A DNA stretch of 21,488 bases, taken from assembly GCA_030372995.1 (NCBI GenBank), contig JAUCPZ010000294.1:1-21488 (forward strand), read 5' to 3'. A model generated the notes under the pieces. That model did not search any database, was not told the DNA's origin, and saw only the letters and a list, made by a program, of their open reading frames with translations. This document shows, in pieces, positions 2,595-21,488 of this stretch. The DNA is from Dehalococcoidia bacterium. Lineage in GTDB: Bacteria; Chloroflexota; Dehalococcoidia; UBA2247; RBG-13-53-26. Within the stretch, counting starts at the first letter, position 1. Every line of letters starts with the position of its first letter. The position numbers were made by a program, and so were the translations under genes.

Positions 2595-5567
2595 ATGCAG
2601 GAACTCTTCGGCGTTTCCGTTACTACCATAGCCATCGTCATGGCGGTTCTCTTCGGCATCGCGGCCATCGTGGCTGTGACTTTGGCCGTGCGCAACCGGA
2701 TTATGTTCAAGTTGGGGGTGCGGAATATCCCCAAACGCCCGGTGCAGACCGCATTGATAGTCTTTGGGCTCATGCTCAGCACGGTACTCATTACGGCTGC
2801 CTTCAGCACCGGCGACACCGTGGTCTATACCATCAGATCGCTGGCAACGGATGCCTTGGGAAACACAGATGAGGTGATCGCTGCTCCGAACAGGGAAACG
2901 GCCCCGGATTTGGGCTACTTCGATTACGCAGTCTTTGAGCGGATCAGGGATGGTCTTGCGGACGCCGGGGCCCAAGTCGACGGCGTTCTGCCGGTCATAA
3001 GGGAGCAGGTGCCGGTAATCAACGCGGGGCCTATGCTCAGCGCACCGAGTGTCACGCCCTTCGCCCCCGCGCCGCAGGAGTATGCGACCTACACAAGCTT
3101 GACGCTTGTTGATGGGCAGAAGATCAGCCTTGATGACTTGGGAACCGATGGCGTGTATCTCGACAAGTCAACGGCGGAGGACCTGCAGGCTGAGGTTGGC
3201 GACGGACTCCTCTTGTTCATCGAGTCCGAGGCGAAGGCGGTGCGGCTGGCCGGAATAGTGAAGGGGGCCTCGTCCGGGGGGTTCGCGTTTGCACTGATGC
3301 CCCTTCCTAGAGCTCAGGAGCTGCTGGGAAAGACGGATCAGATCAATGCGATCTACATTTCCAATAGTGGCGGAGTGCTGGGTGGTGCCAAATATAGCAA
3401 GGAGGTCGAAGAGGATCTTCAGCCACTGTTGGAAGGCACCGGTTTGGAAGTCGAGAAAGTGAAGGAGAGTACGCTGGATCAGGCAGACACGGCTGGGACG
3501 GTGCTGACTACCATGTTCGTCGGGTTTGGCCTGTTCTCCATTGCCGCCGGCGTCCTCCTGATATTCCTGATCTTTGTGATGCTGGCCGCGGCCCGCAAGT
3601 CGGAAATGGGCATGGCCCGGGCGGTGGGCGCCAAGAGAAACCAGTTGGTACAGATGTTCATCTTTGAGGGTGTGGTCTACGACCTGATGGCGGCCATCAT
3701 TGGTGTCGGGTTAGGAATATTGGTCACCTATGCTATCGCCGGCATCATGGCCAGAGTCATACAAGGTTCTCCCATCGATATCCGTGTGCACGTCGAGCCG
3801 AGGAGCCTCATTGTTGCCTTCACTCTGGGAATGCTGGTTACCTTTGCCACGGTGGCCGTGTCTGCTTGGAGAGTCAGCCGCCTCAACATCGTGAGGGCGA
3901 TCCGCGACATACCCGAGCCGGTATTCAAGAGGGTGGGGCGTGGCACCCTTGGTATTGGCGTCAGCCTGGCCGTTTTCGGTCTTCTGATCTTCGTGGCTGG
4001 GATAGGTTCCAAACAAGGGGCTCCCCTCTACATGGGCCTGGCGCTGATCATCGTCGGCGGAGCACTCATTGCCCGATGGCGCGGGGCCAGAGAACGCCTT
4101 GTCTTCACCGTGGCCGGCGTTCTTCTGCTGGCATGGTCTCTCTTGCCGACCAGCGTCTTCGAGACCATTTTTGGCGACGATATGACCATGGGGATAGAGA
4201 TGTTCTTCCTTGCTGGCGTGACCATGGTGCTTGGAGCCGTGTGGATTGTGTCCTACAACCTTGACGTGATCTTGCGGATCTTGGCCGCGGTAGTCGGCCG
4301 GCTGAAGGGTGCTGCGCCGGTGCTCAGGGCAGCCATGGCCTATCCCATGAAGAACCGTATGCGGACGGGCCTCACCATAGCCATGTTCTCCCTAGTCATC
4401 TTCACCATCGTCTTCATGTCGGTGGTGATCGGCGCCAACACGGCAGTCCTTTCGGATTCTGACTCCTTTGCTGGCGGATACGACATCATGGCGAACGTTA
4501 GCTACATCAACCCCGTTCCGAACATGCAGGAGGCAATTGTCGAGAAAGGCATCGATCCTGCCGACTTCGAAGCCATCGCCGGGTACTTCACGATCCCGCT
4601 CAAGGTCAGGGAGTCCAGCCGGGAGGCTGAAGAGGAATTCAAGGACTACACCCTGAATGGCGTCGATGATGTCTATCTGGACACCAACACTTTCAAGTTC
4701 GCGCTCACCGCGCCTGGCTACGACTCTGCTGCAGATGTTTGGAGAGCGGTGAAGGATACACCGGGGTTGGCCGTCATCAGCGCCGACGCCGTGGCTTCCC
4801 GCAGCAACTATGGCGTTGCCATTGGGGGTGCACAATTCCGCCTCGAGGGTGTGTGGCTGGAAGATAAGGCGCTGGACGCTCCGATACAGGTGCGGGTGAA
4901 GGAGTCGTATACAGGCACCGAAACAGACTTGACCATCATTGGCGTGCTCGAAGCTGTGAGCTTCAACTATGGGCTCTACACCTCCCAGCGGACCATAGGC
5001 CAAGTGTGGCCGGCGGACATACCGACCACTACGTATCTCTTCAAGTTGAGCGAGGGAGTGGACGCGGACGAGATGGTCAAGAGGCTTGAATCAGAATTCA
5101 GCGTGAATGGTTTGCAGGCCACCTCGATCAAGCAACTATTGCGGGAGGTAAGCCGGACCAGCTTCACCATCAACACCCTGCTGCAAGGTTTCATGTCGCT
5201 GGGTTTGGTGGTGGGGATCGCGGCTCTAGGGGTAATCAGCACGCGGGCGGTGGTGGAGCGCCGTCACGAGATAGGCATCCTGCGGGCTATCGGCTTCAAG
5301 CGGCGCAGCGTCCAAACCACCTTCCTGCTGGAGTCGTCGATCGTGGCTATCCTGGGCATTATCATCGGGTCTGTCTTGGCGCTGGCGCTGTCTTACCAAG
5401 TACTGGATGACATGAAAGAGACCGTAGAGAACCTCGAGTTCCGGATGCCATGGGTGGAACTGGCCATCATTGCAGGTGTGGCCTGGGTCGCTTCCATGCT
5501 GATGACCATAATCCCGGCTTGGCAAGCTTCCAGGATCTATCCGGCTGAGGCACTGCGTTATGAGTAA
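2595..5567 (+). CDS. ABC transporter permease with two FtsX-like modules and two large extracytoplasmic domains
   Basis: This 990-aa ORF lies immediately downstream of the ATPase. It has an N-terminal TM helix, then a soluble domain of about 270 aa, then a TM cluster. That pattern repeats once: TM helices, a soluble domain of about 240 aa, and a C-terminal FtsX-like 3-TM cluster (ILRAIGFKRRSV...). Confidence 0.88.
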   Translation: MQELFGVSVTTIAIVMAVLFGIAAIVAVTLAVRNRIMFKLGVRNIPKRPVQTALIVFGLMLSTVLITAAFSTGDTVVYTIRSLATDALGNTDEVIAAPNRETAPDLGYFDYAVFERIRDGLADAGAQVDGVLPVIREQVPVINAGPMLSAPSVTPFAPAPQEYATYTSLTLVDGQKISLDDLGTDGVYLDKSTAEDLQAEVGDGLLLFIESEAKAVRLAGIVKGASSGGFAFALMPLPRAQELLGKTDQINAIYISNSGGVLGGAKYSKEVEEDLQPLLEGTGLEVEKVKESTLDQADTAGTVLTTMFVGFGLFSIAAGVLLIFLIFVMLAAARKSEMGMARAVGAKRNQLVQMFIFEGVVYDLMAAIIGVGLGILVTYAIAGIMARVIQGSPIDIRVHVEPRSLIVAFTLGMLVTFATVAVSAWRVSRLNIVRAIRDIPEPVFKRVGRGTLGIGVSLAVFGLLIFVAGIGSKQGAPLYMGLALIIVGGALIARWRGARERLVFTVAGVLLLAWSLLPTSVFETIFGDDMTMGIEMFFLAGVTMVLGAVWIVSYNLDVILRILAAVVGRLKGAAPVLRAAMAYPMKNRMRTGLTIAMFSLVIFTIVFMSVVIGANTAVLSDSDSFAGGYDIMANVSYINPVPNMQEAIVEKGIDPADFEAIAGYFTIPLKVRESSREAEEEFKDYTLNGVDDVYLDTNTFKFALTAPGYDSAADVWRAVKDTPGLAVISADAVASRSNYGVAIGGAQFRLEGVWLEDKALDAPIQVRVKESYTGTETDLTIIGVLEAVSFNYGLYTSQRTIGQVWPADIPTTTYLFKLSEGVDADEMVKRLESEFSVNGLQATSIKQLLREVSRTSFTINTLLQGFMSLGLVVGIAALGVISTRAVVERRHEIGILRAIGFKRRSVQTTFLLESSIVAILGIIIGSVLALALSYQVLDDMKETVENLEFRMPWVELAIIAGVAWVASMLMTIIPAWQASRIYPAEALRYE

Positions 5568-16502: not shown

Positions 16503-16567
16503 ATGGCTTGTTGACGCGATCCTGGGGGGACCTGCTCTCAAGAAATGCGCTGAAAGGAGGTTGTTCT

Positions 16568-17785
16568 ATGTCAGAGCATCAAGAAGGGGCGCTCAGCGTC
16601 TATCGGGTCCTTGATCTTACCGACCAGAAGGGTGCCTTCTGCACCAAGATACTCGCGGACTTGGGCGCTGATGTCATCAAGATCGAGAGGCCTGAGGGGG
16701 ACGCCACACGGAGAATCCCGCCTTTCGCGGGTGATGTGCCCCACCCCGAAAGGAGCCTGTACTTCCTCTTCCGCTACGCCAACAGAAGAGGGATCACTCT
16801 CAACCTAGAGACTACCGATGGCAAGAGAATCTTCGAGAAACTGGTCAAGAAGGCGGATGTCCTGGTGGAAACCTTCCGTCCGGGCTACATGGCCAGTCTG
16901 GGGCTTGACTACCCAGCTCTCAGAAAGACCAACCCCGGATTGGTCATGGCTAGCATCACCGAGTTCGGCCAGAACGGACCCTACAGGGACTGGAAGGGGT
17001 CGGACATTGTCAACTATGCCATGAGCAACACCATGATTACCAGCGGATTCCAGGACGGGGCGCCCATCAACCTGCCGGGAACACCATCCTGCGACGCCGC
17101 ATCCATTATTGCAGCCATTTCTATAGTCACAGCGCTCTACATGCGCGGCAAAGACGGACAGGGCCGGTACATCGACACGTCAGTGCACGAATGCTCGCGC
17201 CTGGCTCTGTACCCCTGGATGCTGCCCATGTACTCGTATAACGTGAATCCCGGGATGCCTCCTCCTCCTCCGGAAGGACGGCTCGGTGCCATGATCTATC
17301 CCGTCTATCCCTGCAAGGACGGGTTCATCCGCGTGGTCGCCCTCACTCCCAGGCAGTGGGATGGGCTGGTACGTGTCCTTGGCGATCCGGAGGTGCTAAA
17401 GACACCTCAGTGGCGCGAGTTCTACTACCGCATTGCAAATGCTGCGGACCTGTATGCGATCATGCTGGAGTTCACCATGCAGTTCACTATGCTGGAGCTC
17501 TTCGAGAAGGGGCATCAGGAGGGCGTGCCGATCGTTCCCATCTACACTGTGGAAGGGTTCACCAATAGCCCCCAGACCGAAGCCCGAAAGTTCTACTCCG
17601 AGATGAAGCATCCGGTGATTGGCAAGTTCAAATATCCTGGGCCTCCCTACAAGTGGTCGGGGACGCATTGCGAGACGAAGCGGCCCGCACCGACGTTGGG
17701 ACAGCATAACGAGGAGATATACTGCAAGGAGCTCGGTCTCTCAAAGCAGGAGTTGGCTGCCCTGCGCCGGGCCGAGGTCATATAG
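16568..17785 (+). CDS. family III CoA-transferase (CaiB/BaiF/Frc family)
   Basis: YRVLDLTDQKGAFCTKILADLGADVIKIERPEGD is the hallmark N-terminus. The C-terminus has APTLGQHNEEI. The start is set at ATG 16568, with GAAAGGAGG upstream. Confidence 0.9.
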   Translation: MSEHQEGALSVYRVLDLTDQKGAFCTKILADLGADVIKIERPEGDATRRIPPFAGDVPHPERSLYFLFRYANRRGITLNLETTDGKRIFEKLVKKADVLVETFRPGYMASLGLDYPALRKTNPGLVMASITEFGQNGPYRDWKGSDIVNYAMSNTMITSGFQDGAPINLPGTPSCDAASIIAAISIVTALYMRGKDGQGRYIDTSVHECSRLALYPWMLPMYSYNVNPGMPPPPPEGRLGAMIYPVYPCKDGFIRVVALTPRQWDGLVRVLGDPEVLKTPQWREFYYRIANAADLYAIMLEFTMQFTMLELFEKGHQEGVPIVPIYTVEGFTNSPQTEARKFYSEMKHPVIGKFKYPGPPYKWSGTHCETKRPAPTLGQHNEEIYCKELGLSKQELAALRRAEVI

Positions 17786-17800
17786 GAAGGAGACTGGGAA

Positions 17801-19027
17801 ATGGCTGACTTTCCTCTCCAGGGAATAAGGGTGATCAGTTTCGGTACCGGTGGAGTCATACCGGACTTCGGCAAGATCCTCGGGGAACTCGGCGCCGATG
17901 TCATCAAAGTGGAGTGCCGGGAGAACCCTGACTTCATGCGGACCATCGGGGCTGATCCCGATAACATAGCCGGATTCAACGAGTCAAACCGCAACAAGCG
18001 CGAGATCGGGCTCAACATGAAGACCGAGAAGGGGCAGGAGATCGCGAAGAGGCTCATCAAGGTGGCTGACATAGTAGGCGAGAACCTCCGTGGCGGGGTC
18101 ATGAAGAGCCTCAACCTGGACTATGAGAGCGTCCGCAAGGTCAAGCCCGACATCATCTACATCAGCAGCAATGGCTACGGGAGCGGCGGGCCGTACTCAG
18201 AGTACCAGGCCTACGGCCCGATGCTTTCCGCTTTCTCGGGTCTCCTCTCACTGTGGTGCCACCCGACCGATCCGTACCCGGCCGGAGCCAATGTACCCCT
18301 ACCGGACCATTACGCCAGCAAGATGCTGGTGGTTGCGGCGCTGGCTGCCCTGGACTACAGGCGCCGCACCGGCAAGGGACAATTTGTCGACATGTCCCAG
18401 GTGGAGATGGCAGCCAATATGATCGGCGAATACTGCCTCGAGTACACCATCAACGAGCGGGTGCCGCAGCCGGTCGGTAACCGCTGTCCGTACGCGGCTC
18501 CCCATAACGCGTACCGCTGCAAGGGGAATGACCAGTGGTGTGCCATCAGCGTCTTCACCGATGCCGAGTGGCACAGCTTCTGCCGGGCGATCGGCAATCC
18601 TCCGTGGACGAAGGAGGCCAAGTTTGCTGACCTGCCTGGCCGGCTGAAGCACGTTGATGAACTGGACAAGCATGTGGAAGAGTGGACGCTGCAGCACGAA
18701 CCGCGCGAGATCATGATCGTGCTGCAGAACGCGGGTGTCGCGGCGGGCGTCCTGTACCGCCCGGCCGAAATCCTGGATGATCCGCAACTGAAATGGCTAA
18801 ACGCCATCGTGGAGGTTGATCATCCGGTGGCCGGCAAGAGACTTTACCCGGGTATTCCATTCCACATCTCCGATGTTACCCTCCCGCCAAGCAGGCCGGC
18901 GCCGATACTTGGCCAGCACACTGAAGAGATATGCCGGGAAGTGCTGAAGATGTCTCCGGACGAGATCAAGGCCTTGATAGAAGAAGGCGTGCTGGAGGTA
19001 CCAACGCGGGACACTCAGAAGAAATGA
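17801..19027 (+). CDS. family III CoA-transferase (CaiB/BaiF/Frc family), second paralog
   Basis: IRVISFGTGGVIPDFGKILGELGADVIKVECRENPD, then AYGPMLSAFSGL (CaiB-like), PLPDHYAS and APILGQHTEEI. It starts 15 nt after the first paralog, with GGAAGGAGA upstream. Confidence 0.9.
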   Translation: MADFPLQGIRVISFGTGGVIPDFGKILGELGADVIKVECRENPDFMRTIGADPDNIAGFNESNRNKREIGLNMKTEKGQEIAKRLIKVADIVGENLRGGVMKSLNLDYESVRKVKPDIIYISSNGYGSGGPYSEYQAYGPMLSAFSGLLSLWCHPTDPYPAGANVPLPDHYASKMLVVAALAALDYRRRTGKGQFVDMSQVEMAANMIGEYCLEYTINERVPQPVGNRCPYAAPHNAYRCKGNDQWCAISVFTDAEWHSFCRAIGNPPWTKEAKFADLPGRLKHVDELDKHVEEWTLQHEPREIMIVLQNAGVAAGVLYRPAEILDDPQLKWLNAIVEVDHPVAGKRLYPGIPFHISDVTLPPSRPAPILGQHTEEICREVLKMSPDEIKALIEEGVLEVPTRDTQKK

Positions 19028-19090
19028 TGGGCGGCTCGGCAGGCGTGGGGAATTGCTGAGTCAGGCTCCCATCTTAAGGTAGAATGGTTT

Positions 19091-19119
19091 GCGGGCCAGA
19101 TCGCCGGGATCTGGCCCGC
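19091..19119. terminator. GC-rich hairpin between convergent genes (possible bidirectional terminator)
   Basis: Perfect 12-bp inverted repeat GCGGGCCAGATC (19091-19102) / GATCTGGCCCGC (19108-19119) with a 5-nt loop. There is no clear U-tract on either side. Confidence 0.45.
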
Positions 19120-19151
19120 GCTGTGTCCGAATGTTGCCGTCATACGCGGAA

Positions 19152-19535
19152 TCAGTGTGGCCGCCTCCGCCGTGTCTTTGATTCGATTCTCCGCAGCTTC
19201 TCTTCACCGATCCCGAAATGATGGGCGATCTCGTGACGAACTACCCTCCCTATCTCAGCTTCGACTTCGGACTCAGAACGACACCTTTCTTCAATGGGCT
19301 TCTGGAAGATGACTATGCGGTCTGGGAGCACCATGCCGTATGCGTGTGTGCGGCTGGTTTGAGGGACACCTTCGTAGAGACCCAGAAGCGTCATACCCCT
19401 CCCGATCCGATTCAACTGCTTCCTGTTGGGGCTGTCTTGGACCACGATGTCCACGTTCTCAAGAGCGCTGCGGAATTCCTCCGGGAGGTCATCGACTGCC
19501 TTGGCTACCAGTTCCCCAAAACGCTCTCTGGTCAT
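19152..19535 (-). CDS. small zincin-like metallopeptidase family protein (DUF1025-like)
   Basis: The 127-aa ORF carries an HEIAHHFG (HExxH) motif near the C-terminus. It also has a conserved-looking DIVVQDSP / LLGLYEG core. An AGGAAGG RBS lies upstream. Confidence 0.8.
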   Translation of the reverse strand: MTRERFGELVAKAVDDLPEEFRSALENVDIVVQDSPNRKQLNRIGRGMTLLGLYEGVPQTSRTHAYGMVLPDRIVIFQKPIEERCRSESEVEAEIGRVVRHEIAHHFGIGEEKLRRIESKTRRRRPH

Positions 19536-19654
19536 ATCACCGCCTTCCTTTCACCGAAATGTGAACCTCATCATCATTCGGTACGATTGGGAAAGCCCGG
19601 ACAGCCCTCTCGTGAATAGGGACCGGACAGTAGGTAGGGCACACCGCATCGGGA

Positions 19655-19663
19655 ATTATATCA
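19655..19663 (-). promoter_or_regulatory. putative extended -10 element upstream of the metallopeptidase gene
   Basis: The minus strand reads TGaTATAAT (TATAAT = 19660-19655). I saw no good -35. It would give a 5' UTR of about 110 nt. Confidence 0.35.
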
Positions 19664-19762
19664 CCGGGAGACGGGCGCCAGTGGGGCAGGCTTCCGCTTG
19701 GAATGCGTTGGTGAGGTCGGTATCTGAAATCGAGCGAGGAAGAACGGTGGGGAGCAAGGTGC

Positions 19763-20224
19763 CTAGGTGGTGCTGGGCGCCTTTCTGTTGAACGCTACCG
19801 TGATCACCCCTGAAGCCGGGGCGCTTTCTTCCGTGCAGACCACCCGAAGATACTGAGTGCCGTTCGGTGCAATGTTGACTGTCTTACTGGAGGAGTAGCT
19901 CACATACTCGAAGTCAGCTCCCGGACCGTCCTGGTCTACCAGCATCTTCACCTCAATTCCGCTGTCAGGGTTGTCCAGAGTGCAGGCGTACTGCATTCCG
20001 TAGGTAATCTCGGCTGCGTTGATCACGGTGAAATCCACGTATTGGCCTGGATACAGCGTGACATTCTCAACCGTGAGCGGCTGTACTGAGATTGGCTCCC
20101 TGACGGTGACAGGGATGTCCCTGGTTGTCAACTTGTAGGCGGCCCAGGCCGTGCCCGCCGCGACTATGACCAACAGCACGGCCAGCGTCCATAAGGGAAT
20201 GATGCCCCACAACTTCTTGCGCAT
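19763..20224 (-). CDS. secreted or membrane-anchored beta-rich protein with TasA-like (SipW-type) signal peptide
   Basis: The ATG has AAGGAGG 6 nt upstream. The N-terminus is MRKKLWGIIPLWTLAVLLVIVAAGTAWAAY. That gives a basic n-region, a hydrophobic core and GT(A)WAAY, compared with TasA GGGTWAAF. The remainder is Thr/Val-rich and predicted beta. Confidence 0.65.
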   Translation of the reverse strand: MRKKLWGIIPLWTLAVLLVIVAAGTAWAAYKLTTRDIPVTVREPISVQPLTVENVTLYPGQYVDFTVINAAEITYGMQYACTLDNPDSGIEVKMLVDQDGPGADFEYVSYSSSKTVNIAPNGTQYLRVVCTEESAPASGVITVAFNRKAPSTT

Positions 20225-20249
20225 CGGATGCCTCCTTTCTCTACTGTGT

Positions 20250-20387
20250 CTATTCTTCGTGGCGCTCTCCCCACCGTTCTGCTCGCTCGGTCATGGCGGC
20301 AATCGCCGGCCAATGGGCAAGATGAGATCGCAGAGATCCGGCGACGGCAGCCAACCTTGAGATGTTGTGGCAGCTCGAGGTGATCAT
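20250..20387 (-). CDS. hypothetical 45-aa protein (first cistron of the promoter-proximal operon)
   Basis: ATG 20387 is preceded by GGAGGTG at a 9-nt spacing, about 40 nt downstream of a near-consensus promoter. The stop lies 25 nt before the next gene. The sequence is MITSSCHNISRLAAVAGSLRSHLAHWPAIAAMTERAERWGERHEE. I recognise no family. Confidence 0.35.
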   Translation of the reverse strand: MITSSCHNISRLAAVAGSLRSHLAHWPAIAAMTERAERWGERHEE

Positions 20388-20426
20388 GGTAAGTCTCACC
20401 TCCAGGCCCGCGCGCATTCCATAACG

Positions 20427-20462
20427 ATTATAGATTATAGAGTTAATATCATAAAAGATCAA
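20427..20462 (-). promoter_or_regulatory. near-consensus sigma70-type promoter with duplicated -10 box
   Basis: On the minus strand: TTGATC (20462-20457), a 17-nt spacer, then TATAAT (20439-20434). A second TATAAT (20432-20427) follows directly. The block is a local AT-rich island. Confidence 0.65.
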
Positions 20463-20776
20463 ATCCATCATATACGGGTTATGCGCCGTTAGCAGCCAGA
20501 CCTCGCATCTCTGGCAAGTTGGTCTGCTTTCCGGCATCTCCCGTTTCACGTGACTGCGCGGGTGGGATGAAGTCACGCAGCTCCTCGTCCGCGCCTCCGG
20601 AGGTTGGTGCAAAGGGACACTGCAGCGCGGAGGCGCGCGTTGTGAACAGCGCCGGAGCATTCGGCGAGTCCTGGCCGGGGGCCGTCACCGCCGGATAGGC
20701 AATGAGGGTGCGGACATTCGACGTTGGCGTCTTGGCAACGCGCAGACCTCAGCGTTGTCGTTGAGGATGATGAGGC

Positions 20777-20872
20777 TGGTGAGGCGCACAGGACTCGAAC
20801 CTGTAACCGGCTGATTAAGAGGTAGGCTTGAGACAAGCCGCCAATTCGTTGCTGAACCGACCGCTTGCCTCC
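20777..20872 (-). ncRNA. tRNA-like RNA: canonical T-arm, 3' acceptor strand and encoded ACCA, with a non-cloverleaf 5' region
   Basis: The minus strand ends ...ACAGG-TTCGAGT-CCTGT-GCGCCTC-A-CCA, running from 20804 to 20777. The 5' end GAGGC (20871-20867) pairs with GCCTC for 5 bp, followed by 2 mismatches. The remainder forms a 9-position helix CGGTCGGTT/AATCAGCCG (6 Watson-Crick pairs, 2 G-U wobbles, one C/A mismatch) and a GGCTTG-TCT-CAAGCC hairpin. I could not build a D-arm or a 7-nt anticodon loop with U33. Confidence 0.5.
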
Positions 20873-20883
20873 TTTCGATCAAT

Positions 20884-20912
20884 ACTGTAGGAGGCTCGAG
20901 GAGAGATGTCAA
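20884..20912 (-). promoter_or_regulatory. promoter of the tRNA-like RNA
   Basis: On the minus strand: TTGACA (20912-20907), a 17-nt spacer, then TACAGT (20889-20884). The predicted TSS at about 20876-20877 lies roughly 5 nt upstream of the RNA's 5' pairing strand. Confidence 0.55.
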
Positions 20913-20967
20913 ATCCAGCAATCGGAATCCGGCAGATTCATCTCATTATGTCGTAATGGATATTCTC

Positions 20968-20986
20968 AACCGGTTCTCCGGTTTTT
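20968..20986 (+). terminator. possible plus-strand intrinsic terminator
   Basis: AACCGG-TTCT-CCGGTT hairpin (6 bp) running into TTTTT (20982-20986). The U-tract exists only for a plus-strand transcript. Confidence 0.35.
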
Positions 20987-21302
20987 CGGGTCGGATTTCG
21001 ATCGGCCCCGTAATTGTATCACAGATCGTCACTGCACATTATTAGAATAATGACTTTCCGAATTCAGATACGCGCTCAGCAGCGAAAAAGAGTGTCTGAC
21101 ATCATGAAGGGGATCGAAAACCTCGATCGATGCAAGACCCGAAAATGAGGCAAAACAGACGAATTGTTAATTGCGGAGGAACAATCATTGCGAATAGTGA
21201 AGAAAAGCAAACAGCGGACGCGGAAGGGAACCGGCCAGAGGTCCCGCGGCCAGCAGACCTTGCATTACACTGGCCTAGCGGCCTGGCGCTTGCAGCCAGC
21301 GT

Positions 21303-21488
21303 CTACACTATCTGCTCGAAATGGGCGACGACAGTCTTGTCGGAATCCATAGTGATAGTGGTAACCGGCGAAGTGCCCGAAGCATCCCCGCTCCAGTGGG
21401 AAAACTTGTACAGCGGGGCCGGGACCGCAGTTAGTTCCACTGGCAAGCCCGCAACATACGGACCAGTTGGTGGGACGACTGTCACAGC
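21303..21488 (-). CDS. InlB B-repeat (Listeria-Bacteroides repeat)-containing protein, C-terminal fragment; the 5' end lies beyond the window
   Basis: ...LTAVPAPLYKFSHWSGDASGTSPVTTITMDSDKTVVAHFE matches the Y.F..WsGd....t.tm..dk.v.A.F repeat consensus. The frame is open to the window edge. Confidence 0.6.
   Translation of the reverse strand, partial: AVTVVPPTGPYVAGLPVELTAVPAPLYKFSHWSGDASGTSPVTTITMDSDKTVVAHFEQIV

Follow-up and report, generated by a model that had tools for sequence, protein, structure and literature searches.

A displaced 3' half of tRNA-Lys(CUU) probably marks an attR-type junction of an integrated element in an uncultured Dehalococcoidia genome

The window that we analyzed is the entire contig JAUCPZ010000294.1 of a Dehalococcoidia bacterium (assembly GCA_030372995.1; 21,488 nucleotides), and the DNA visible beyond the junction described below is limited to 667 nt. 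The window encodes DegV, an ABC/FtsX transporter, hisI/hisF-type proteins, dxs, rpiB, a polyprenyl synthase and two family III CoA-transferases. The tandem genes of the latter (425 and 408 aa) at 16508-19027 adjoin a CoA-ligase-like gene, which gives the region a metabolic context. Near the end of the contig, between 20777 and 20912, the original prediction had placed a promoter-driven, tRNA-like regulatory or decoy RNA of 95-96 nt on the minus strand. The features in this part of the window are:

19763..20776, minus strand: native chromosomal flank 3' of the tRNA, consisting of an intergenic region and then a 153-aa gene (19763-20224); assigned by collinearity with relatives.
20777..20821, minus strand: displaced 3' fragment of tRNA-Lys(CUU), positions 32-76 with encoded CCA; putative att core, direct-repeat copy on the attR side.
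20822..21488, no strand: putative end of inserted DNA, reaching to the contig end; without similarity to relatives that share the other flank.
20830..20871, minus strand: strong strand-specific hairpin in the presumed foreign DNA, 8 nt from the junction; 17 bp with four G-U pairs and one G/G mismatch.
20884..20912, minus strand: putative sigma-70-like hexamers TTGACA-17-TACAGT in the presumed foreign DNA; 10/12 matches in a consensus scan.
21303..21488, minus strand: C-terminal 61 codons of a Flg_new_2 (divergent InlB B-repeat) 'cell wall-binding' protein; Pfam PF18998, E 3.6e-13.

On the minus strand from 20912 to 20777, the hexamers TTGACA-17-TACAGT are followed by GGAGGCAAGCGGTCGGTTCAGCAACGAATTGGCGGCTTGTCTCAAGCCTAC|CTCTTAATCAGCCGGTTACAGGTTCGAGTCCTGTGCGCCTCACCA, in which the bar marks the junction. 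The part to the right of the bar (CTCTTAATCAGCCGGTTACAGGTTCGAGTCCTGTGCGCCTCACCA) corresponds to tRNA positions 32-76, and the part to the left (GGAGGCAAGCGGTCGGTTCAGCAACGAATTGGCGGCTTGTCTCAAGCCTAC) fits no part of a tRNA. The 45-nt segment 20821..20777 can be read without gaps as tRNA-Lys(CUU) from position 32, which is its first base and the start of the anticodon loop, to the encoded CCA: CUCUUAA with the Lys anticodon CUU (32-38), UCAGC (39-43), CGGUU (44-48), ACAGG (49-53), UUCGAGU (54-60), CCUGU (61-65), GCGCCUC (66-72), A73 and CCA. It comprises the anticodon loop and the 3' strand of its stem, a variable loop of 5 nt, the T-arm, the acceptor 3' strand, the discriminator A and CCA. The stretch ACAGG-TTCGAGT-CCTGT-GCGCCTC-A-CCA, from which the tRNA likeness had been deduced, is indeed present and ends at 20777. 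However, the likeness is not limited to T-arm, acceptor strand and CCA, as had been assumed, because it continues without gaps up to the anticodon loop CUCUUAA. The fragment is identical to the intact tRNA-Lys(CUU) of a related genome, L002, at 45/45 positions and to the L006 copy at 42/42 positions over the stretch present there, and its 42-nt search pattern occurs exactly in 18 intact tRNA-Lys genes from metagenomes. The tRNA-Lys of a further relative, L001, differs from that of L002 and the window at four T-stem positions.

Within the window, 20777..20821 is the sole copy of the tRNA 3' half, and the 5' half was absent from the whole window when up to three mismatches were allowed. ARAGORN in default, intron, -ps and -ps95 modes called no tRNA or tmRNA gene in the window; Rfam gave no match at gathering score there and no tRNA or tmRNA match at E<=10 in 20400-21200. 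As positive controls, ARAGORN called the syntenic tRNA-Lys genes in both L001 and L002, and the tRNA-Lys of L002 reached 68.6 bits with RF00005. The earlier statement that no cloverleaf can be drawn was thereby borne out. At the 80% threshold only, ARAGORN -ps80 forces a 95-nt 'tRNA-Lys(ctt)' with distorted cloverleaf, which we rejected since a normal tRNA occupies the site in relatives. At the same threshold a 'permuted tmRNA' using GAGGCGCGGACGAGG about 190 nt downstream is reported; it was dismissed as well, as its tag AGKQTNLPEMRGLAANGA is unrecognised and the call is absent at default, -ps and -ps95. Fragments of tRNA genes are known to be mis-called or overlooked in prokaryotic annotation (PMC9897764). 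The segment in the window is likewise a partial, non-functional tRNA-derived sequence that looks like a tRNA gene by eye or under permissive settings, and the forced 'tRNA-Lys' of ARAGORN -ps80 is a call of this kind, but in contrast to the published cases it is correctly rejected by default tools.

Relatives were placed by a protein-guided scan of species-representative genomes, which led to uncultured Dehalococcoidia with L001 and L002 as the best. Their CoA-transferase proteins are 90% (L001) and 89% (L002) identical to that of the window, and ARAGORN calls an intact, same-strand tRNA-Lys(CTT) at the syntenic spot of both genomes. From the CoA-transferase stop codon, the tRNA 3' end is 1750 nt away in the window, 1789 nt in L001 and 1782 nt in L002. 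When 19000-21488 of the window was compared with L001 and L002 by BLAST, only 19183-20279 and 20777-20821 were aligned, the latter at 100% to L002, and homology to both genomes halts exactly at 20821, which is tRNA position 32. The segment 19183-20279 contains the 153-aa gene and a Zincin-like gene; it runs collinear with L001 and L002, to which it is 73-74% identical at the nucleotide level. The 153-aa gene also flanks tRNA-Lys in L022, L026, L027, L029 and L033. The tRNA promoter and the 5' half of the gene are conserved in L001, L002, L014, L026, L027, L031 and L033, whereas the window contains unrelated DNA in their place.

Between the fragment and the 153-aa gene, an AT-rich block at 20420-20465 with TTGATC-17-TATAAT shows nucleotide-level conservation in L001, L002, L022, L026, L029 and L033, while the remainder of the intergenic region around it is not conserved in the relatives. 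The block is probably the promoter of the conserved, signal-peptide-like 153-aa gene on the minus strand. In the same intergenic region, 20581-20617 on the plus strand gave an Rfam match to the raiA-hairpin that stays below threshold (25.7 bits, gathering score 43.7, E 0.028) and whose alignment has a zero-length loop. It was the only Rfam match nearby at E<=10 and is probably due to chance.

The DNA on the other side of the junction, 20822-21488, resembled none of the 34 fetched loci, the relatives with shared native flank among them, and had no match in the phage and plasmid collections. In viral_contigs, neither 33-mer and 18-mer patterns of this DNA and its hairpin nor the tRNA-Lys 3' half were detected. 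Its noncoding part has a GC content of 50%, compared to 58.5% for the window. The last visible gene is the Flg_new_2 fragment, which is cut by the contig end; this piece of a cell-wall-binding-type repeat protein is the only visible cargo and is not diagnostic for a mobile element. A Flg_new_2 protein with 61% identity (P0002, contig L034) was considered and discarded, because that contig is devoid of related noncoding DNA and of a tRNA fragment. At 230-538 and 1114-1416 of L034, the sole other relative of the C-terminus of the window protein is followed by a convergent ORF, which ends in a sequence that by eye resembles the C-terminus of a tyrosine recombinase, a putative assignment. No direct repeats of arm type were found in 20700-21320, where only weak inverted repeats are present. 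The noncoding inserted DNA contains a 22-nt inverted repeat around GATCGA motifs (20983-21004 and 21124-21145, 77% complementary, 119 nt apart), which could represent binding sites of recombination proteins or be a product of chance.

The breakpoint in the window recurs in five other contigs. An exact 42-nt scan of metagenome contigs yielded 20 matches, 18 of them intact tRNA-Lys genes and two of them fragments that start at the same base. Identity starts at tRNA position 32 in the window, L029, L027b, L031b and L004 and at position 29 in the integrase-linked L030, and the L006 contig with its copy at 5227-5268 ends exactly at position 32. L029 with the fragment plus flank and L033 with the intact tRNA plus flank share 96.7% identity over 1049 nt, and their alignment begins exactly at tRNA position 32; the two contigs are the occupied and the empty site of one population. 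In L030 (936-2377), a gene for an XRE-type HTH protein is followed by a 46-nt tRNA-Lys 3' segment and, 4 nt further on, by a tyrosine integrase gene (PF00589, E 4.4e-35). Judged from its gene order, this arrangement is attP-like and would be the module of an element targeting the same tRNA-Lys(CUU).

Direct repeats were found in two further contigs. In L027 (185-1276), an intact tRNA-Lys is followed by about 1 kb of inserted DNA and, at 1232-1276, by a second, decayed 3'-half copy, and the native flank beyond this second copy is syntenic with 20279-19934 of the window. L031 (108-2679) contains an intact tRNA-Lys, an insert of about 2.4 kb and a partly decayed second 3'-half copy. Both islets are free of integrase genes. 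The encoded CCA is gone from the regenerated tRNA of L027 and kept in its displaced copy, in the window fragment and in the native gene of L002. L004 contains a decayed fragment at 17930-17971, 5.7 kb off the expected position. Taken together, the window and six related contigs show a repeatedly used integration hotspot with serial remnants at position 32 of tRNA-Lys(CUU) in this uncultured Dehalococcoidia clade. The inserts of L027 (609-944) and L029 (10-282) have a homologous Cys/His-rich ORF of 111 aa in common, which has no Pfam match and lies in opposite orientations relative to the tRNA fragment.

We consider it likely, with a probability of roughly 0.88, that a mobile element underwent site-specific integration at the chromosomal gene for tRNA-Lys(CUU), within its anticodon loop, and that the site is the resulting attR-type junction. 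A tyrosine integrase would have recombined the attP of the element, holding its own copy of tRNA positions ~32-76, with the tRNA gene. The 5' half of the gene joined to the 3'-half copy of the element would form a regenerated, working tRNA at the far end of the element beside the integrase, and the original 3' half (20821..20777), together with its native CCA and native downstream flank, would be left orphaned behind the other end. The first 51 nt of the proposed 96-nt RNA would then be the last bases of the element, with an unrelated hairpin and promoter-like site. The order in the window, element end, displaced fragment and native flank, is that expected of the distal (attR) junction. We infer that the regenerated tRNA-Lys and the integrase lie beyond 21488 in the source genome, where GGGGCGCTAGCTCAA...GCTGA and the 45-nt repeat would serve as marker sequences of the other island end.

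Support for integration comes from the identity of the fragment and its exact boundary, the synteny with relatives carrying the intact gene, the foreign DNA upstream and the recurring breakpoint, and the recurrence in other genomes includes the hallmarks integrase, direct repeats and an occupied/empty pair. A remnant att site had been listed last among the alternatives in the original prediction and is the one favored by the intact tRNA-Lys at the same locus in relatives and by the integrase next to the same 3' half in L030. An intact tRNA with identical 3' half and an adjacent integrase, a combination that the prediction had itself named as counterevidence, were found in relatives (L002 and L030, respectively); the contig of the source genome ends 667 nt upstream of the junction. 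The undecayed state of the fragment (45/45) fits a recent or still-mobile element, but selection on the fragment, or a chimera assembled across the 45-nt repeat, would account for it as well.

The arrangement agrees with what is known of integrase-borne islands and prophages in tRNA genes. In the Islander survey, a regenerated tRNA gene and a displaced fragment mark the two ends of an island and attP supplies the replacement 3' half; a 3' fragment was present in 3760/3919 islands, and the site was anticodon-centred in 2083 (PMC4383910). Of the features used in such an approach, the window offers identity to the 3' part of a tRNA (45/45), a sublocation in the anticodon loop that is used by other elements, and a native 3' flank with foreign DNA on the 5' side and an empty site in relatives. 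A regenerated tRNA at the other island end was seen in L027 and L031, and an integrase beside the same 3' half in L030; the view in the window stops 667 nt past the junction. As in the known islands and prophages, tRNA identity extends from the anticodon loop to the 3' end, relatives carry the unoccupied gene between the corresponding flanks, and the tRNA-island-repeat order recurs in related contigs together with one integrase-adjacent, attP-like site. There is no difference in kind; in the window, the integrase, the regenerated tRNA and the island body are out of view, and a very stable strand-specific hairpin lies 8 nt from the junction. The locus is thus a new instance of a well-known integration scar and not a new RNA, and in this sense it is ordinary. 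Work by Reiter in 1989 and Williams in 2002 is said to be the source for integration at tRNA genes by tyrosine integrases and for the anticodon-loop sublocation.

Within the class Dehalococcoidia, Dehalococcoides strain 195 has a repeated genomic island (GEI) at tRNA-Lys, and Dehalococcoides islands at tRNA-Arg and ssrA are bordered by direct repeats of 58 bp and 20 bp (PMC2764846). The class, the type of target including tRNA-Lys and the direct repeats from the 3' end are shared with the window, as is the repeated use of one site, given the serial or decayed remnants in L027, L031 and L004. In contrast to these islands, the window comes from an uncultured MAG lineage, its repeat measures 45 nt starting at tRNA position 32, and no reductive dehalogenase or other such cargo lies in the visible 667 nt. 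A tRNA 3' half that does not form a cloverleaf and lies near a promoter-like motif is the textbook appearance of an island or prophage boundary, and it should be filed as an att repeat. In this Dehalococcoidia MAG, the fragment would mark one end of an unrecovered mobile element, and the hotspot at position 32 may help to delimit islands and to diagnose contig breaks in such MAGs.

The RNA that had been proposed would consist of an acceptor helix, a rod with a GGCTTG hairpin and a T-arm. This combination has a predicted free energy of -24.5 kcal/mol compared to -36.7 kcal/mol for the minimum free energy structure of the 96 nt, from which it is thus separated by about 12 kcal/mol. Forcing the acceptor and the T-arm alone costs 4.6 kcal/mol, and in the predicted ensemble the acceptor pairs have a probability of 0.005 and the T-arm of 0.98. 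The 5' 44 nt of the proposed RNA instead form the 17-bp hairpin, which folds independently and holds the GAGGC that had been assigned to the 5' strand of the acceptor. GAGGC occurs in ~10% of shuffled upstream segments, and a match occurs in 43% when G-U pairs are allowed, so that this acceptor complement can be explained by chance. The promoter claim was correct insofar as the hexamers are present at 20912..20884 with 10/12 matches. They are not compelling, as the 1.5 kb scanned contained two such sites, with 0.7 +/- 0.9 expected.

That the segment is a genuine promoter-driven, tRNA-like small RNA, whose minihelix and rod serve as a decoy or imitate a substrate of RNase P, the CCA-adding enzyme or a synthetase, is extremely unlikely in our view. 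The correctly placed promoter-like site, the confidently predicted T-arm, the undecayed fragment, the five possible acceptor pairs and the position of the hairpin on the same strand would speak for it. Against it stand the disfavoured fold, the chance level of GAGGC, the occurrence of the same 3' half behind five unrelated upstream sequences, and the 5' 51 nt, which have no homolog in the fetched loci, viral_contigs and the phage and plasmid collections and consequently give no covariation support. The suggested likeness to the tRNA-like domain of tmRNA or the YrlA module did not hold either, since no Rfam match to tmRNA, YrlA or tRNA and no default ARAGORN tmRNA was obtained. It is confined to the T-arm and the 3' acceptor strand with ACCA, as in any tRNA 3' half, whereas a predicted acceptor helix and conservation of the non-tRNA part are missing. 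Two reservations made in the prediction itself proved right: there is no G3-U70 pair, as acceptor position 70 is C, and Pfam scans of 20 window proteins gave no Ro/TROVE domain and hence no rsr/Ro neighbour. A role as the 3' half of a split tRNA gene of the Nanoarchaeum type, or as the acceptor piece of a permuted two-piece tmRNA, has a practically negligible probability. The promoter-like site upstream of a tRNA 3' half and the 80% call of ARAGORN fit this idea, but the split would lie at 31/32 instead of the 37/38 intron site, the 5' half is not in the window, relatives carry an ordinary intact tRNA here, and the lack of G3-U70, the unrecognised tag and the failure of the stricter ARAGORN modes and the Rfam tmRNA models argue against a tmRNA. 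To our knowledge, bacteria do not possess the archaeal splicing endonuclease, which argues against a split tRNA.

Two further explanations retain the tRNA-Lys origin of the fragment. Loss of the gene by a deletion, an inversion or an IS insertion that was not site-specific would leave a pseudogene and no regenerated copy, in agreement with the visibility of the 3' half only and the lack of an integrase or a second copy within the contig. However, L029, L027b, L031b and L004 have their breakpoints at exactly the same base as the window, the L006 contig ends at it, and the identity block of L030 begins within 3 nt of it. This coincidence disfavors a random break, the lack of decay in the fragment likewise argues against it, and we regard it as very unlikely. 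An assembly chimera, in which an attP arm or DNA of another genome was joined to the flank via the shared 45-nt tRNA segment, appears highly improbable. The contig was assembled from a metagenome, the 45-nt segment is identical across many populations, and the break of the L006 contig at this very point indicates that assemblers struggle there. On the other hand, common final k-mers in assembly (55-141) exceed 45 nt, so that such a join would normally need spanning reads, and occupied sites of the same architecture are contained in single contigs (L027, L031 and L029). Even if the join were chimeric, the object would remain an att core and not a gene for a tRNA-like RNA.

Integration at tRNA-Lys leaves the hairpin and the promoter-like site unaccounted for. 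On the minus strand, the hairpin at 20830..20871 has a predicted free energy of -26.5 kcal/mol (z -6.3 to -6.4), and 0/1000 shuffles were as stable, whereas the plus strand reaches only -9.6 kcal/mol (z -1.15). Stability on the minus strand only and the fact that all four pairs outside Watson-Crick geometry are G-U hint at a role at the RNA level. No U tract follows on the 3' side of the hairpin and no terminator was called. The hairpin may serve the upstream Flg_new_2 gene as a terminator that works without a U tract, or it may form the 5' end of a transcript of the element. Homologs of the hairpin were not found in the 34 fetched loci, viral_contigs and the phage and plasmid collections. A core-adjacent hairpin as a common feature of the att sites was also considered and rejected, as the upstream segments of L029, L030, L027b, L031b and L004 have z values of -1.6 to +0.2. 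It is highly doubtful that the end of the element encodes a small transcript that runs from the promoter-like site through the hairpin (20871..20830) to the orphan tRNA 3' half as a processing or stabilising module or an enzyme bait. If such a transcript existed, an integration scar would have been co-opted into an RNA, with the T-arm and ACCA tail serving as a 3' module or as bait for tRNA-binding enzymes. By eye, a perfect 7-bp inverted repeat, GCCTCCT/AGGAGGC, spans the -10 hexamer on the minus strand (20867-20895); it competes with the 5' arm of the hairpin, and the alternative pairing would be possible in read-through transcripts from upstream.
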